The notes under the pieces: generated by a model
Told to the model about the DNA's origin: nothing
The model's database searches: none
What the model saw: the letters and a program-made list of their open reading frames with translations, nothing else
Shown here: positions 29,105-37,324 of the stretch, in pieces
Position numbering within the stretch: the first letter of the stretch is position 1
How the letters are laid out: the number at the start of each line of letters is the position of its first letter
Program-made: the position numbers and the translations under genes
NCBI RefSeq assembly: GCF_001457615.1
Contig: NZ_LN831024.1
Location: 1,554,773 to 1,594,772, forward strand
Direction of reading: 5' to 3'
Origin: Pseudomonas aeruginosa
GTDB taxonomy: Bacteria; Pseudomonadota; Gammaproteobacteria; Pseudomonadales; Pseudomonadaceae
Length of the DNA: 40,000 bases

Positions 29105-31429
29105 TCACTCCGTGCCGTGTTCGGTCAGGGCGCGCTCGGCGGCGCTCAGGCGCGCGCGGGCGGCGGCGAGTGCGGCGGCGTCGGCGTTCGCCAGGCGTTC
29201 GAGCTTCTTCAGGGCGGCGCGGGCGTAGGCCAGCTCGGTCTTCAGCTCGCGGATGCGCGGGTCGACCGGGCGCTTGTCGATCCGCACCAGCTCCGGCGCC
29301 GGCTTGCCGCAGGCGTCCTCGGCGGCATGCAGGTCGCGCTCGGCGGCTTGCAGCTCGCCGCGCAGGCGTTCCAGCTCGCTGTCCATCACCCCGGCCTGCT
29401 CGGCCTTCTTCAAGGCCGCGCGCTTGCCGACCAGGGCGATCTTCGCCCGCTTCAGCGCCGCCTGGCCGTCGTCGCCGGGCGCCGCGGGCTTCGGCGCGTG
29501 ACGCTCGAGGCGGGCCAGGGTGGCTTCGCAACGCTCGACCTCGGCGCGCAGTTCGTCGAGGGTCGCCCGCTGCTCGGCGCCGGGCGCTTCGCCGAACGCC
29601 TTTTCCGAGCGCTTGAGCTGGGCGCGGGCCATGGCGGCCTGGGCCTTGGCCTTCTTCAGTTCGGCTTCGTCGTCGAGCGCGGCAGGCGGTGCGCTGGGTA
29701 GGTCGCGCGGCAGGCTGGCTTCGGCATCGGCCAGGGCCTTGTCGGCGGCCTCGGCGGCGGCGCGCAGTTCCGCGACCAGGCCATGCTGTTCCGGGGTGTC
29801 GTGGCTGAGCAACTGTTTCTCGGCCTTCTTCAGGGCCACCCGCGCCATGCTCGCTTCGATCTTCAGCCGTTTCAGCCGTTCGCTGCCGCTACCGGCCTGC
29901 TTGCGCGCCCTGGCCCGCTCGATCGCCGCCTGCACCGGGTCGACCGCCGTGGCGGGGGCGGCTTCCTCGCGCTCGGCCTGGGCGGCGCGCGCCAGCGCAG
30001 CCTTCTCCGCGCGTTGGGCGCGTTCTGCGGCCCGGCGCTCCTCGTCGCGGCGCAGGCGAGCCTGGCGTTGCTCGAAACGCTCACGGGATTGTTCGGCCTT
30101 CAGCAACTTCTGCCGCTGCTCGCGGATCTCCGCCTTGGACGCGCGGTAGTACTGCACCAGGGGAATGCTCGACGGGCAGACGTAGGCGCAGGCGCCGCAC
30201 TCGATGCAATCGAACAGGTTGTGGGCGAGCAATTGCTCGTGCTCGTCGCCCAGGGCGAAGAAATGCAGTTGTTGTGGCAGCAGGCTGACGGGGCAGACCT
30301 GGGCGCAGTCGCCGCAGCGGATACAGGGCATGGCCGGCACTGGTTCCGGCAGCTCCGTGGCATCGCCGGCGAGCAGGCAGTTGCAGGTCTTGATCAGCGG
30401 CACCGAGAGATCGGGCAGGGCGAAGCCCATCATCGGCCCGCCCATCAGCACGCGTTCCAGGCGTCCCTCGGCGAGGCCGGCGAACGCCAGCAACTCGTGT
30501 ACCGGCGTACCGATCAGCGCCTCGACGTTCATCGGCCGCTCCAGGGCGCCGCCGGCGAGGGTAGTGATCCGCGAGATCAGCGGCCGACCGAGGACGACGG
30601 CATCGTGCACGGCGGCCAGGGTGCCGACGTTCTGGCACAGGATGCCGATGTCCGCCGGCAGGCCGTCCGCCGGGACTTCCCTGCCGGTGAGCAACTGGAT
30701 CAGCTGGCGCTCGCCGCCCGAGGGATAGCGGGTCGGCAGGGCGACGATACGATAGGGCCGTTCACCGAGGGCGGCGCCGAGGGCGGCGATGGCTTCCGGT
30801 TTGTCGTCCTCGATGCCGACCAGCACCTCTTCGGGGCACAGGATCTGCACCAGGATATCGATGCCGCCCAGCACCTGCGTGGCGCGCTCGCGCATGAGCA
30901 GGTCGTCGGCGCTGATGTAGGGCTCGCATTCGGCGCCGTTCACCACCAGCGTATGGATCTTGTCCGCCGGGCGCGCGGCGAGCTTGGCCGCGGTGGGGAA
31001 GCCGGCGCCGCCGAGACCGCCGATGCCGGCCGCGCGGATGCGTTCGAGCAACGCCAGCGGACTTTCGGCGCGGAAGTCCGGGCAGGGATGCAGCTCGGTC
31101 CAGCGCTCCAGGCCGTCGCTGGCGATGACGATGGCCGGCGCGGGAAGACCGGAGGCATGCGGATAGGGGTGTGCGCCGATCGCCACCACGGTACCCGAGG
31201 TCGGGGCATGCAGCGCGGCGCTGACGGTGCCGTCCGGGAGGGCGATGGTCTGGCCCTTGAGTACGGCCTGGCCGACTTCCACGCAAGGCCGCGCCGGCGC
31301 GCCGATGTGCTGGCCGAGCGGCACGATGTAGCGCTGCGCCAGCGGCGCCTGCTGGATCGGCAGGGCGGTGGAGCGCTCCTTGTTGGCCGGCAGGCAGAGG
31401 CCGCCGGGGAAGGCGTGCAGGGCGCTCAT
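29105..31429 (-). CDS. rnfC: Rnf/Rsx complex subunit C with a long Ala/Glu/Lys/Arg-rich C-terminal extension (774 aa)
   Basis: NADH/FMN-binding-like core [10 protein letters not shown]. Two 4Fe-4S motifs ([24 protein letters not shown]). About 330 aa of repetitive coiled-coil-like tail. Start at [10 protein letters not shown] overlaps the rnfB end. Confidence 0.88.
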
Positions 31430-31992
31430 GCCGCTCGCTCCCGGTCGCTGGCGATCAGTCGCGGCGACGGCTGCGGCCATTTCCAGTGGCGCACGTCGTC
31501 CGGTATCTCGCGCATCTCGATGCAGTCCACCGGACAGGGCTCCAGGCACAGGTCGCAACCGGTGCATTCGTCGGCGATCACCGTGTGCATCAACCGTGCG
31601 GCGCCGACGATGGCGTCCACCGGGCAGGCCTGGATGCACTTGGTGCAGCCGATGCATTCGGCCTCGCGGATGTAGGCTACCCGCGGCGGGGTTTCCTCGG
31701 CGGCGTCGAGCGGCTCGGGCTCCAGGTCGAGCAGGTCGGCGAGGGCGCGGATGGTCGCTTCGCCGCCCGGCGGGCACTTGTTGATCTTGTCGCCGGCGGC
31801 GATCGCCTCGGCGTAGGGCTTGCAGCCGGGGTAGCCACACTGGCCGCACTGGGTCTGCGGCAACAGGGCGTTGACCTGCTCGGCGACCGGATCGCCCTGG
31901 ACGCGGAAGCGCACCGCCGCATAGCCGAGCAGCGCACCGCCGGCCAGGCAGATCGGCAGCAGCGCGCCGATCGCCAGGAACACGCCGTTCAT
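31426..31992 (-). CDS. rnfB: Rnf/Rsx complex subunit B (polyferredoxin), 188 aa
   Basis: N-terminal anchor, [13 protein letters not shown] cluster motif, and two CxxCxxCxxxCP ferredoxin motifs. Confidence 0.92.
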
Positions 31993-32573
31993 GGCCGGAC
32001 CAACCCACTGAAGCCCATGAACGCCAGCGACATCAGGCCGGCGGTGATCATGCCGATGGCCGCGCCGCGGAACGGCGCCGGCACGTCGGCGATGGCGATG
32101 CGCTCGCGCAGGGCGGCGAACAGCACCAGCACCAGGGAAAAGCCCAGCCCGGCGCCGAAGCCCTGGGTAGTGGCCTGGAGGAAGCCGTATTCAGCCTTGT
32201 TGGCGTTGAGCAGGGCGACGCCGAGGACGATGCAATTGGTGGTGATCAGCGGCAGGAAGATGCCGAGCACCCGGTACAGCAGCGGGCTGGTCTTCTTCAC
32301 CAGCATCTCGGTGAACTGCACCACCACCGCGATCACCAGGATGAAGCCGATGGTGCGCAGGTACTCCAGGTCCAGTGGGCGCAGCACGTAGCGTTGCAGG
32401 ATATGGCTGCACATCGCCGCCAGGGTCAGGACGAAGGTGGTGGCGAGGGACAGGCCGATGGCCGTCTCGATCTTCCGCGACACGCCCATGAACGGGCACA
32501 GGCCGAGGAACTGCACCAGGACAAAGTTGTTGACCAGGATGGCGCTGACCAGGATCAGGGCGAGTTCAGTCAT
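31989..32573 (-). CDS. rnfA: Rnf/Rsx complex subunit A (194 aa)
   Basis: Six-helix membrane protein with [16 protein letters not shown]. First gene of the rnfABCDGE-nth string. Confidence 0.92.
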
Positions 32574-32670
32574 ACGCGAAGCATTCGTTGCAGGGCCGGG
32601 GCCGTCGGGGGAAATCCCCTATTATCGGGTGGGATTGCCCTGCAAGGCTAGCGCAAACACGTACGAAAGA

Positions 32671-32701
32671 CCGGGAGACGGACTGCCGTTGCGTCTCCCG
32701 G
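32671..32701 (-). terminator. Hairpin terminator after tsi3
   Basis: CCGGGAGACG (32671-32680) pairs with CGTCTCCCGG (32692-32701). On the minus strand the hairpin is followed by TCTTTCGT. Confidence 0.6.
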
Positions 32702-32709
32702 GGTCGCGC

Positions 32710-33147
32710 TCACTGCAACCTGGCCCGCTCCAGCAGCGCCCAGGCCAGGGCGAAGGTCGGTTCACCATCCTCGCTCTGCTCGCTGGCGCTGACCACGATC
32801 CACCGCGCGCCCGCCGGCTTGGCTGCCCACAGGCGGTATTCGCTGCCTGCGGAGCCGCCGTCGTCTTCCTCTACCTTGTAGCGCGCCTCGCCGTCGCCCA
32901 GGCGCCTGCTCGCCAGGTCGGGCGGGGGCGGCGCGTCCTGGCGCTGGACCTCCAGTTGGCGTGGGTTGCGCAGCTTGCCGCCTTCGTCGAAGCGGAAGCC
33001 CTCGGCGCTGCGCCGCGCGTCGAAGCCGACGGGGCGCTCCACCACCAGGCCGTTCGGGTGGGTCAGGGTCTTGTCGAAGTCCACCCCGGACTCCGCGGTG
33101 CAGGCCAGCAGGGCGAGGCTGGCGAGAATCAGGGCGACTGTCTTCAT
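32710..33147 (-). CDS. tsi3: Periplasmic immunity lipoprotein for Tse3 (145 aa)
   Basis: Lipoprotein signal MKTVALILASLALLAC. ATGA overlap with tse3 indicates translational coupling. Sequence and position match PA3485. Confidence 0.88.
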   Translation of the reverse strand: MKTVALILASLALLACTAESGVDFDKTLTHPNGLVVERPVGFDARRSAEGFRFDEGGKLRNPRQLEVQRQDAPPPPDLASRRLGDGEARYKVEEDDGGSAGSEYRLWAAKPAGARWIVVSASEQSEDGEPTFALAWALLERARLQ

Positions 33148-34370
33148 GGGAACCTCATTCCAGGGTCGAGGAAGGTGGCGTAGGCATCGTCGACGAACAT
33201 CGGCCAGCCCGGCGACAGGTTGTCGTCCCAGGGCCGCGAGGTGTATTCCGAGGCCAGCGCGCGGACATTGTCCCGCGGCCAGTTGCGCGGATTGCCGGCG
33301 TAGGCGCGGAGATCGATGGAGGGAAATGCGCCGCGGGTCTTCGGCAACTTGCGCAGGTCCTGTTGCGACGCGAGGTTGGCGACGTAGCGGATGTAACGGG
33401 CGGTGGCGAAGATGTTGAATTCGTCGGAAGCCAGCAGGGTGGCGACCGCCTTGCGCGACAGACCGCGGCGCACCGGCTGGCCGAGCAGGTCGGTGAACAG
33501 CTCGTACTTGATCGCGGTGGAGACCACCACCTGGCCGAGGCCGATGGAGGTGTTGGCGCTCTTGATGCTGACTGCCGCCTGATAGTCCTTGGCGTCTTCG
33601 TCGCGGGTCTGGTCACGCTGCTCGGCGAGGATGATCGCGCCGATCAGTTGCGGCGTCAGGTCGTACTTGCGCGCGGCCGCGGACATGACCTTGGCCCGCG
33701 ACGGCGGGTTGCCCGGATAGGCGTCGGGGAACAGCGTGCTGATCGGCTGGCCGACCAGCGTCTGTGCCTGGTTCAGCTTGTCTTGCGGCGAAAGCTGGCT
33801 CAGGTAGGCGCCCAGGTCGCCGAGCGGGTTGCTGTACTTGGTGACGGTCGCCGGGTCCTTGTTGAGCAGCTTGAGCTGGTCGCCGAAGGCAATGGACGGC
33901 AGGTCGGTCGGATTGACGCCGGTGGCGCCGACCCCGCTGAACGGACCCTGGATCGCCTGGCTGGCCACCCCGGTGGCGCCGGCCGCGGCGAAGCCCAGGC
34001 GGCCAGCGGCGTCGGCGAGGTCGGCGCAGATGTCGAAGAAGGTGATGGTGGGGAAGTAGATCCAGTTGTCGGTCTGGGTGCCCAGGGGATTGTTGATCAG
34101 GCTGCGGATCAAGGCATTGCGTGCCTGGTAGCGCTGCATGGTGGTGCGCCCGGCGATGCTGGCGATCAGCGAGCGCGCCAGTTCCGGCGGGCCCACCCGC
34201 TGGAACAGCTTGATCAGCGAGCCGCTCTTGTCGAGTGCGGCGATGGTCGCATCGGGCACGTTGTCGTTGCGGATCGCGGCGATCACCCGGCGGGCTTCCT
34301 GGCGGGTCACCTGCCAGTCGTCCCAGCTATAGGAAATCAGTGACTCGATCAGGTCGCTGGTGGCGGTCAT
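33144..34370 (-). CDS. tse3: Type VI secretion exported effector 3, peptidoglycan muramidase (408 aa)
   Basis: MTATSDLIESLISYSWDDW... with a lysozyme/SLT-like region (IILAEQRDQ...SIGLGQV). AGGAGG RBS. Length and position match PA3484. The 701-aa track ORF is an upstream extension. Confidence 0.9.
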   Translation of the reverse strand: MTATSDLIESLISYSWDDWQVTRQEARRVIAAIRNDNVPDATIAALDKSGSLIKLFQRVGPPELARSLIASIAGRTTMQRYQARNALIRSLINNPLGTQTDNWIYFPTITFFDICADLADAAGRLGFAAAGATGVASQAIQGPFSGVGATGVNPTDLPSIAFGDQLKLLNKDPATVTKYSNPLGDLGAYLSQLSPQDKLNQAQTLVGQPISTLFPDAYPGNPPSRAKVMSAAARKYDLTPQLIGAIILAEQRDQTRDEDAKDYQAAVSIKSANTSIGLGQVVVSTAIKYELFTDLLGQPVRRGLSRKAVATLLASDEFNIFATARYIRYVANLASQQDLRKLPKTRGAFPSIDLRAYAGNPRNWPRDNVRALASEYTSRPWDDNLSPGWPMFVDDAYATFLDPGMRFP

Positions 34371-34423
34371 CGGTCTTCCTCCTTGTGAGTTGCCAGGCCC
34401 GTCAGGCGGTCCTGGGCGAAAGA

Positions 34424-34442
34424 GCGGACCCTCCCGGTCCGC
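34424..34442 (-). terminator. Short hairpin after the lipoprotein gene (terminator-like)
   Basis: GCGGACC-CTCCC-GGTCCGC. On the minus strand it is followed by TCTTTCGCC, the same tail as the tsi3 hairpin. Confidence 0.45.
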
Positions 34443-34456
34443 CCGTATGCCTGGGC

Positions 34457-35257
34457 TCAGCGCGCCTCGTTCTTGCCGGGCCGCCGCAGCCAGCGCCACA
34501 GGCCGCGCAGCAACAGGCCCAGCGGCAGCAGCACGACGAGGAACGGCAGGCTGTAGGCGAAGAATTTCATCGCGGCGATGGTGCCATCGACAAGGTCGTC
34601 GAGCAGTTGCCCGGCGGCCGTGGCGAGCTGGCCGAGGCGGCTGTCCGGCTGCGCCTCGCTGCTGAAGCTCAGGGTCAGCAGGTTGGTGGCGATGCGCCGC
34701 TGCTGCTGGGCGCCGGCCTGGGCGTTGTCGGCCAGTTGAGCTTCCACCGCGGCGATTTCCTTGGCCAGGGCCAGCAGGTCGCCGACGCTCATGTCCTTGC
34801 GCCCCTGGTATTGCTGCAGGGTCTGGTACTCGCGTTGCAGGCGCTCGCGTTGCTGGCGGGTGTCGGCGACCGCCTGGGCCAGGTCCTCGGCGCGGGTCTG
34901 CCGGCTTTCCAGCGTGCCGCCCTGGGCAGCGGCCGCGACCAGCTTCTCCACGCCGTCCGGGACGATGCGCACGGTGAGTTCGGCGTAATGGCCGATACCG
35001 CCGCGTTGTTCGATGGCGAGCACGTCGCACTGGCCGAAGTGCTCGCTGTTGCAGGCGTCGCGGCTGGCGGCGAGTTGCGCGTCGATACGCGCGGCGGAAA
35101 GGCGGATGCCGACGCGGTGTTCGTAGGCGAGGGCGGTGCCGGGTTTGCCCGTCTCGCCCTGGAAACCGGCATTGCCGGAGACGCTTTCGGTGTGTTCGGC
35201 GGAGCATCCGTAGAGCGCCGCCAGCAGGACGCCGGCGGCAAGCTTCCATGCGTTCAT
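34457..35257 (-). CDS. Lipoprotein with coiled-coil region and C-terminal TM helix (DUF4349-like), 266 aa
   Basis: Lipobox LLAALYGC. Central heptad-like region (RQQRERLQREYQTLQQYQ). C-terminal hydrophobic helix FFAYSLPFLVVLLPLGLLL. Confidence 0.75.
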   Translation of the reverse strand: MNAWKLAAGVLLAALYGCSAEHTESVSGNAGFQGETGKPGTALAYEHRVGIRLSAARIDAQLAASRDACNSEHFGQCDVLAIEQRGGIGHYAELTVRIVPDGVEKLVAAAAQGGTLESRQTRAEDLAQAVADTRQQRERLQREYQTLQQYQGRKDMSVGDLLALAKEIAAVEAQLADNAQAGAQQQRRIATNLLTLSFSSEAQPDSRLGQLATAAGQLLDDLVDGTIAAMKFFAYSLPFLVVLLPLGLLLRGLWRWLRRPGKNEAR

Positions 35258-35290
35258 TCTATCGAGCCCTCCATGGCTTCGTGGTCTGCG

Positions 35291-37324
35291 TTACTTGACG
35301 CGCTGGCCCGGCTTGGCTCCGCTGTCCGGACTCAGCAGGTAGATCTCCTCGCCACCCGGGCCGGCGGCCAGGACCATGCCCTCGGACACCCCGAACTTCA
35401 TCTTGCGCGGCGCCAGGTTGGCCACATAGAGCGTCAGGCGGCCTTCCAGGGCGCTCGGGTCGGGATATGCGCTCTTGATCCCGGAGAACACGTTACGCTT
35501 CGCGTCGCCGATGTCCAGCGACAGGCGCAGCAGCTTGTCGGCGCCTTCGACGAATTCGCACTTCTCGATCAGGGCGATGCGCAGGTCGACCGCGGCGAAA
35601 GCGTCGAAGTCGATCTCCGCGGCGATGGGTTCCTTGACCAGCTCGCCGTTGCCGGCGGGTTGGGATGCGGCGGCGAGGTCTTCCTTGGAGGCTTCGATCA
35701 TGGCTTCTACTTTCGCGGGCTCGATACGGGTCATCAGGGGCTGGAACGGGTTCAACTGGTGGTTGGCCAGCAGGGTCTGGTGGTCGGCCCAGGTCAGCGG
35801 GGCGACGTTGAGGAAGGCTTCGGCGGCGGCGGCCAGCTTCGGCAGCACCGGCTTGAGGAAGATCACCAACTGGCGGAACAGGTTGATGCCCAGGCCGCAG
35901 ACGGCCTGGACCTTGTCCTGCTGGCCTTCCTGCTTGGCCAGCGCCCAGGGCGCCTGTTCGGCGATCCAGGCGTTGGCGCGGTCGGCGAGGGCCATGATCT
36001 CGCGCATGGCGCGATTGAAGTCGCGGGCCTCATAGGCCTCGGCGATTCCCGGGGCGGCCTCGCGGAAGGCGGCGAGCAGCTCCGGCGCCGGATCGGCGCC
36101 GACCAGCACGCCGGCGTTGCCCTTGTGGATGAAGCCGGCGCAGCGGCTGGCGATGTTGACGACCTTGCCGACCAGGTCGGAGTTGACCTTCTGCACGAAG
36201 TCCTCGAGGTTCAGGTCGAGGTCCTCGACGCCGCGGCCGAGCTTGGACGCGTAGTAGTAGCGCAGGTATTCCGGGTCCAGGTGGTCGAGGTAGGTGCGCG
36301 CCTTGACGAAGGTGCCGCGCGACTTGGACATCTTCTGGCCGTTCACGGTCAGGTAGCCGTGCACGTTCAGCGCGGTCGGCTTGCGGTAGCCGGCGCCTTC
36401 GAGCATGGCCGGCCAGAACAGCGCGTGGAAGTTGACGATGTCCTTGCCGATGAAGTGGTACAGCTCGGCACTGGAGTCCTTGCCCCAGAACGCGTCGAAG
36501 TCCAGCTCGGGACGCCGCGCGCAGAGGTTCTTGAAGCTGGCCATGTAGCCGATCGGCGCGTCCAGCCAGACGTAGAAGTACTTGCCGGGAGCGTCGGGAA
36601 TCTCGAAGCCGAAGTACGGCGCGTCACGCGAGATGTCCCACTGCTGGAGGCCGCTGTCCAGCCATTCGGCGAGCTTGTTGGCCACCGACTCCTGAAGGGT
36701 GCCGCTGCGGGTCCATTGCTTGAGCATGGCCTCGAAGTCCGGCAGCTTGAAGAAGTAGTGCAGCGATTCCTTGAGCACCGGGGTGGCGCCGGAGATCGCC
36801 GATTTCGGGTCCTTCAGTTCGGTCGGGGCGTAGGTCGCGCCGCAGGCCTCGCAGTTGTCGCCGTACTGGTCGGCGGTGCCGCACTTCGGGCAGGTGCCCT
36901 TGATGAAGCGGTCGGCGAGGAACATCTGCTTTTCCGGGTCGAAGTACTGGGTCACCGGGCGGGTGTCGATGTGCCCGGCGTCGCGCAGTTTCAGGTAGAT
37001 CGCGCTGGACAGCTCGCGGTTCTCTTCCGAGTGGGTCGAGTGGTAGTTGTCGAAGTCCACCAGGAAGTCGGCGAAGTCGCCCATGTGCTCGGCGCGCACG
37101 GCGTCGATCAGTTGCTCGGAGGTGATGCCCTCGCGCTCGGCGCGGAGCATGATCGCCGAACCGTGGGCGTCGTCGGCGCAGACGTAGACGGCCTGGTTGC
37201 CACGCATCTTCTGGAAGCGCACCCACATGTCCGTCTGGATGTACTCCAGCATGTGTCCCAGGTGAATGGAACCGTTGGCGTAGGGGAGGGCGCTGGTAAC
37301 GAGGATCTTGCGTGGTTCGGACAT
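35291..37324 (-). CDS. metG: Methionyl-tRNA synthetase (677 aa)
   Basis: HIGH motif (NGSIHLGH), KMSKS, a zinc knuckle CPKCG...CEACG, and a C-terminal tRNA-binding (Trbp111-like) domain. Confidence 0.97.

Follow-up and report, generated by a model that had tools for sequence, protein, structure and literature searches.

We analysed a window of 40,000 nucleotides (nt) from Pseudomonas aeruginosa, genome positions 1554773-1594772 of contig NZ_LN831024.1, the genome being a single contig of 6,316,979 bp. Two overlapping genes in this window almost certainly encode, as judged from their translated sequences, the canonical P. aeruginosa effector-immunity pair Tse3/Tsi3 (PA3484/PA3485). The pair is already known and belongs to a textbook system of type VI secretion (T6SS); the only speculative element is a promoter which an initial annotation of the locus had placed in the spacer upstream of it. 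The pair consists of the following features (coordinates refer to the window, unless stated as genome positions):

33144-34370, minus strand: tse3, the equivalent of PA3484 (ATG at 34370, TGA at 33146-33144; 408 amino acids (aa)), a peptidoglycan muramidase effector of the H1-T6SS with the catalytic residue Glu250
32710-33147, minus strand: tsi3, the equivalent of PA3485 (ATG at 33147, stop codon at 32712-32710; 145 aa), a periplasmic lipoprotein immunity protein
33144-33147, minus strand: ATGA start/stop overlap of tse3 and tsi3, read directly from the sequence
34378-34383, minus strand: AGGAGG Shine-Dalgarno sequence of tse3, 7 nt before its ATG, read directly from the sequence

The Shine-Dalgarno sequence of tse3 is embedded in the context CAAGGAGG, which contains GGA, and a GAGG, likewise read directly, precedes the ATG of tsi3 by 5 nt. 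With tsi3 placed directly downstream of its effector gene and overlapping it by the ATGA, co-expression of both genes would be expected; the 4-nt overlap is also kept in a homologous pair of 48% identity (L029). Judged by eye, the N-terminus of Tse3 (MTATSDLIESLISYSWDDW / MTATSDLIESLISYSWDDWQ) has no hydrophobic signal-like core, and that of Tsi3 (MKTVALILASLALLAC) carries the lipobox LLA-C with Cys16, which predicts targeting to the periplasm as a lipoprotein. The G+C content of the pair (65-71%) is like that of its flanks and gives no signal of foreign DNA.

Over its full length the larger protein shares 100% identity with chain A of the PDB entry 3WA5 ("Type VI secretion exported 3", residues 1-408, E = 9e-272), and it also matches five further crystallised Tse3 sequences in the PDB; the smaller protein shares 100% identity, again from end to end, with chain B of the same entry ("Tse3-specific immunity protein", residues 1-145). 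The Pfam domains T6SS_Tse3_N and T6SS_Tse3_cat cover residues 2-119 and 144-332 of Tse3 with scores of 145 bits for PF22120 and 434 bits for PF22115, at cut-offs of about 27, and Tsi3 is matched by PF22211 (Tsi3) at residues 36-143 with 115 bits, again far over the cut-off. Residue 250 of Tse3 was checked directly and is a glutamate located inside AIILAEQRDQTR. The further residues of the soluble lytic transglycosylase (SLT) motif listed for Tse3 (Ile246, Gly276, Gln280 and Tyr376; PMC3792639) are present by virtue of the complete identity to the crystallised chain, and the Tsi3 interface residues from the same source (R60, P62, D96, S99 and P130) were all found in the translated sequence. No result of the analysis spoke against the identification. 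The initial annotation had thus read the locus correctly in these points: both minus-strand open reading frames (ORFs), their ATGA overlap and the AGGAGG lie at the positions it gave, the larger protein lacks a signal peptide, the downstream gene encodes a lipoprotein, the lysozyme/SLT-like catalytic region corresponds to T6SS_Tse3_cat with E250, and the comparison with PA3484/PA3485 which it had proposed yields the identity with Tse3 and Tsi3.

A genome-wide profile search found no match to VgrG (Phage_GPD), Hcp, PAAR or TssC inside the window. The genome contains ten Phage_GPD matches, nine of them over the cut-off, the nearest of which lies at genome position 1,804,910 (216 kb from the pair), as well as five PAAR matches, the nearest at 1,114,157 (473 kb away), four Hcp matches, and TssC sheath genes at three sites (101,875, 2,872,646 and 3,703,525). 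The Hcp at 103,243-103,731 matches PDB 1Y12 (PA0085, Hcp1) with 356 bits over 161 residues; together with the TssC at 101,875 and the VgrGs at 110,944 and 115,276 it forms the H1-T6SS cluster, about 1.48 Mb from the pair. With no adjoining vgrG, hcp or PAAR gene, the pair does not belong to a vgrG island, and from these genomic distances its description as an orphan, far from T6SS genes and without vgrG, hcp or PAAR nearby, is correct. This position is however no puzzle as it had appeared to be, since it is explained by the way in which Tse3 is loaded and by an island that this strain lacks.

Concerning the loading, Tse3 co-purifies with Hcp1 in pull-downs, belongs to the three leading interactors of Hcp1 in vivo, and requires the Hcp1 inner-ring residues L28, A29, T59, S115 and T122 for its secretion (PMC8262886). 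A review table likewise lists Tse3 (PA3484) with Tsi3 (PA3485) as a RetS-repressed, Hcp1-dependent muramidase with a periplasmic target (PMC4899435). Because Tse3 is cargo of the Hcp1 lumen, tse3 needs no linked vgrG. For the identical protein, published work describes secretion through H1-T6SS and Hcp1 as well as toxicity in the periplasm (PMC8262886, PMC4899435), and both would by this identity also apply to the protein encoded here. Competition of a tse3-tsi3 deletion recipient with a wild-type donor, and the toxicity of periplasm-directed Tse3 in the presence and absence of Tsi3, are likewise on record for the identical proteins.

The second part of the explanation lies directly downstream of tsi3, where the following features were found by comparison with contigs from P. 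aeruginosa assemblies that encode the exact Tsi3 sequence (L003-L012):

32574-32709, no strand assigned: tsi3-rnfA intergenic region of 136 bp, the unoccupied site of the vgrG4b island, from the gap comparison across assemblies
32654-32713, minus strand: segment of 60 bp specific to the island-free form, delimited by blastn against L003, L006 and L007, where the alignments break at 32714 and 32653
32671-32701, minus strand: hairpin after tsi3 with a 10-bp stem (-20.3 kcal/mol, z = -3.49), followed by the tail TCTTTCG at 32664-32670

The gap of 136 bp between tsi3 and rnfA is shared by L004, L005, L008, L011 and L012, and measures 135-136 bp in L009 and L010. In L003, L006 and L007 about 7.3 kb separate the two genes and contain Phage_GPD, PLDc and Tli4_C genes, encoding a VgrG of 808 aa, a PLD-domain protein of 1099 aa and a Tli-type protein, which corresponds to the vgrG4b-pldA-tli5a island. 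The strain analysed here therefore carries the unoccupied form of this accessory island site, and its pair stands as an orphan because the island is absent. In L006, 7253 bp with a G+C content of 63.5% (VgrG4b, PldA and Tli5a; flanks 66-70%) are found in place of the 60 bp. The two forms part at the last base of the final tsi3 codon (CAG TGA in the window versus CAA TAG in the occupied form) and meet again at GCTAGCCTTGCAGGG. Neither direct repeats nor a target-site duplication were found at the island junctions, the best candidate being a 13-mer that is merely where the shared right flank begins; the two forms thus differ by an exchange of 60 bp for 7253 bp and not by a clean insertion. The 60-bp segment contains the terminator-like hairpin of tsi3, at which transcription of the pair probably ends in strains that lack the island. 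In one of the assemblies compared (L009, HG530068.1) metG, rhlB and tse3 are each called as split or truncated genes, which seems to reflect frameshifts that arose as assembly errors and not real pseudogenes.

In one panel of cystic fibrosis isolates 83% lacked the island, which was also missing from PAK and PA7 in earlier studies, and tse3 has been classed as a core effector (PMC9846239). As VgrG4b delivers PldA via the H2-T6SS (PMC6684961), the adjacency of the island to tse3 in PAO1 is positional and not functional.

Two other readings of the function of the pair have to be weighed at this point. If the gene order of PAO1 did reflect a functional tie, Tse3 would depend on the neighbouring VgrG4b spike and the H2-T6SS, and the pair in this strain would be a stranded remnant that cannot be delivered. 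In the occupied strains (L003, L006 and L007) the VgrG gene indeed starts about 295 bp past tsi3 on the same strand, but Tse3 binds Hcp1 and needs Hcp1 lumen residues for its secretion (PMC8262886, PMC4899435), PldA is the effector that VgrG4b carries by the H2-T6SS (PMC6684961), tse3 is kept in all strains and the island is absent from most (PMC9846239), and a sister species has the pair without the island. A remnant is moreover hard to reconcile with two intact ORFs that are identical to active proteins, and we regard this reading as highly improbable. The SLT fold of the catalytic domain (PMC3792639) and the location between the housekeeping genes metG and rnfA would also fit a housekeeping lytic transglycosylase that is accompanied by a periplasmic inhibitor of the lysozyme-inhibitor type and is unrelated to secretion. 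Without a signal peptide, however, Tse3 would not reach the wall of its own cell, the identical protein is known from published work to be exported by the H1-T6SS, and its occurrence in just 2 of the 34 species of the genus and 2 of 401 genomes sampled from the family is an accessory distribution and not that of a housekeeping enzyme, which makes this reading more improbable still. The stranded remnant, the VgrG4b-dependent delivery and the housekeeping transglycosylase were accordingly all rejected.

The mechanism that we propose for the Tse3/Tsi3 pair in this strain relies on the literature on identical proteins for the secretion route, the enzymology and the immunity, and on the present analysis for protein identity, gene anatomy, distances, the presence of Hcp1 and the empty island site. 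Tse3 would be synthesised in the cytoplasm of the producer and, lacking a signal peptide, be exported without a periplasmic intermediate. It would be held inside the lumen of Hcp1 hexamer rings until the distant H1-T6SS delivers it to the periplasm of adjacent Gram-negative cells, where its SLT-fold domain, with Glu250 and the Ca2+ sites, is expected to cleave the beta-1,4 bond that links N-acetylmuramic acid to N-acetylglucosamine (MurNAc-GlcNAc) in peptidoglycan. Tsi3, coupled to the translation of Tse3 by the ATGA overlap, would be exported to the periplasm of the producer as a lipoprotein, where three of its loops would plug the groove of Tse3 with sub-nanomolar affinity and thus shield sister cells from mutual attack. 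The crystal structure describes Glu250, the Ca2+ sites and the three inserting Tsi3 loops, together with a sub-nanomolar dissociation constant and contacts made by Arg60, Asp96, Ser99, Pro62 and Pro130 (PMC3792639), and Tsi3 has been reported to be periplasmic and to be required not for growth but solely for protection from intercellular self-intoxication by sister cells (PMC3325213). The pair may furthermore be co-regulated with the H1-T6SS through RetS/Gac-Rsm, perhaps via the GGA-containing Shine-Dalgarno sequence; a preprint on crosslinking immunoprecipitation sequencing (CLIP-seq) of RsmA/N does not mention tse3.

The question of a promoter specific to the pair depends on the spacer upstream of tse3, which contains one further feature:

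34422-34444, minus strand: hairpin after the gene for a DUF4349 lipoprotein, with a 9-bp stem and a 5-nt loop (-18.7 kcal/mol, z = -2.17)

According to the initial annotation, a terminator-like hairpin closes the upstream lipoprotein gene and suggests, without proving it, that the pair has its own promoter in the remaining spacer (about 34371-34423). The hairpin does exist, but its U-tract consists of UUU only, so that it is at best a partial terminator. A scan for consensus promoters and terminators over 32400-35400 on both strands returned neither a sigma-70-like site nor a terminator; both hairpins had therefore to be judged by folding alone. The tail TCTTTCG is common to the two hairpins (32664-32670 and 34417-34423), the heptamer as such being unenriched with 3 occurrences in the window versus 3.75 expected.

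That the pair is an autonomous transcription unit, with a promoter within the 46-53 nt (approximately) between the tail of the upstream hairpin and the ATG of tse3, appears unlikely to us. In favour of such a unit are the stable hairpin at the end of the upstream gene, the identity of 84 of the 86 nt of the DUF4349-tse3 spacer in the sister species (G014) and the occurrence of distant homologous pairs as self-contained two-gene cassettes. The spacer identity of 98% is nevertheless close to that of the neighbouring synonymous sites (synonymous divergence, dS, 0.08-0.14), which renders this conservation uninformative. In addition, the search for promoter-like sites yielded none in the spacer or its vicinity, and since its last 13 nt are taken up by the Shine-Dalgarno sequence and its spacing, a -35 and a -10 element plus a leader would hardly fit into what remains. 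Given the short UUU tract and the absence of a terminator call at the hairpin, transcripts that read through from metG/DUF4349, or that start at a promoter within the DUF4349 coding sequence, are no less probable. A supplement to a paper on RNA processing and transcription start sites in PAO1 has no entry for PA3483-PA3485 (PMC5870498). The promoter proposed in the initial annotation is thus not supported by our analysis.

The genes on either side of the pair are the following:

34457-35257, minus strand: upstream neighbour, outside the pair, a DUF4349 lipoprotein of 266 aa in the position of PA3483 (Pfam DUF4349, 1.4e-21)
31989-32573, minus strand: downstream neighbour, the housekeeping gene rnfA (Pfam Rnf-Nqr, 2.1e-61)

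Further downstream, the longest ORF (29105-32008, minus strand, 967 aa) reaches upstream of the RnfC of 774 aa that is called in related strains; the C-terminal tail of RnfC is long and rich in Ala, Glu, Lys and Arg.

Among the 34 species of the genus, Tse3 was found only in this genome and in the sister species G014, where it is 96% identical. The DUF4349 gene is syntenic with metG in 21 of the 34 species of the genus, and in other species of the genus the order metG-DUF4349...rnfA is kept, and where the pair would lie there is a secreted protein of 176 aa on the opposite strand that has a signal peptide and no Pfam match. The retained order of the flanking genes and the differing content between them indicate that the pair is a lineage-specific insertion into a variable slot. 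In the P. aeruginosa group toxin-type cargo has repeatedly settled in this DUF4349-rnfA slot, namely tse3-tsi3, the vgrG4b island and, in another species, ccdAB. Alternative contents of the slot were seen at L024:901-1431 and L018:2316-3551, and one species also has the ccdA-ccdB toxin-antitoxin pair.

Between the two sister species Tsi3 is only 79% identical (window 32710-33147 versus L014:2724-3161 of G014), compared to 96-97% for Tse3, DUF4349 and RnfA. Its nonsynonymous divergence (dN) amounts to 0.13 versus 0.014-0.017 for the other three proteins, and its dN/dS ratio (omega) to 0.45 versus 0.07-0.20. The known Tse3-contact residues are conserved in Tsi3 of G014 except for D96, which is replaced by P. 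A mildly new observation is that, between sister species, tsi3 diverges about eight times as fast as the gene of its toxin.

Outside the family, full-length homologues of Tse3 with 41-56% identity occur in Sorangium, Nannocystaceae, Roseospira and metagenome-assembled genomes of Planctomycetes. Both the Sorangium gene and a metagenomic homologue with 48% identity have a gene of the Tsi3 family directly behind them, either abutting or overlapping. Within 10 kb of both pairs no injection-system genes were found, the surrounding genes being metabolic ones; an orphan two-gene cassette therefore appears to be typical of the family in the loci examined. PF13699 (eCIS_core/DUF4157) was found on about 25 of the 120 Tse3 homologues listed (about one fifth), and in the one protein that was checked, Sorangium P0074 (L028:10001-12363), DUF4157/eCIS_core is located at the N-terminus and followed by the Tse3-like N-terminal and catalytic domains.

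The domain composition suggests that the same muramidase, carried within the Hcp1 lumen by P. aeruginosa, may be loaded into particles of the extracellular contractile injection system (eCIS) type in Myxococcota and Planctomycetes. The more general idea that tse3-tsi3 is a self-contained mobile two-gene cassette which is reused by different contractile injection systems is tentative, and we consider it possible but somewhat doubtful. A literature search of limited reach found no published link between DUF4157 and Tse3-like domains, and it is likewise mildly new that the cassette recurs in distant phyla, there with an N-terminal domain of the eCIS type. The locus raises no new testable question, and the presence/absence polymorphism of the island has already been surveyed in clinical isolates. 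The window matters only as a correct annotation, in which the muramidase, a core effector of the H1-T6SS, is present together with its immunity gene and the accessory PldA phospholipase island is absent.

Compared to known systems, the locus is closest to that of PAO1 (PDB 3WA5, 4LUQ, 4M5F, 4N7S, 4N80 and 4N88), with the same proteins, gene order, ATGA overlap and flanking metG-DUF4349 and rnfA. Strains of the PAO1 type differ only downstream, where tsi3 is followed by vgrG4b-pldA-tli5a instead of the 136 bp and rnfA found here. That island (VgrG4b-PldA/Tle5a-Tli5a, PA3486-PA3488) is, like tse3-tsi3, a T6SS effector-immunity unit and occupies the chromosomal slot directly 3' of tsi3, but it is spike-loaded, dependent on the H2-T6SS (PMC6684961), accessory and absent from this genome. 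With regard to the enzyme itself, soluble lytic transglycosylases and goose-type lysozymes have in common with Tse3 that the catalytic domain adopts the SLT fold and uses a single Glu for catalysis (PMC3792639). In contrast to them, Tse3 acts hydrolytically as a muramidase, has three Ca2+ sites close to its active centre as well as an extra N-terminal domain, lacks a signal peptide and is delivered between cells. The pairs Tse1-Tsi1, Tse2-Tsi2 and Tse4-Tsi4 resemble tse3-tsi3 in being bicistronic, scattered away from the H1 cluster, Hcp1-dependent and RetS-repressed (PMC4899435, PMC8262886). Their effectors differ from the muramidase Tse3 in activity, Tse1 being an amidase, Tse2 a cytoplasmic toxin dependent on nicotinamide adenine dinucleotide (NAD) and Tse4 a pore former, and with 44.4 kDa Tse3 is the largest Hcp1 cargo.

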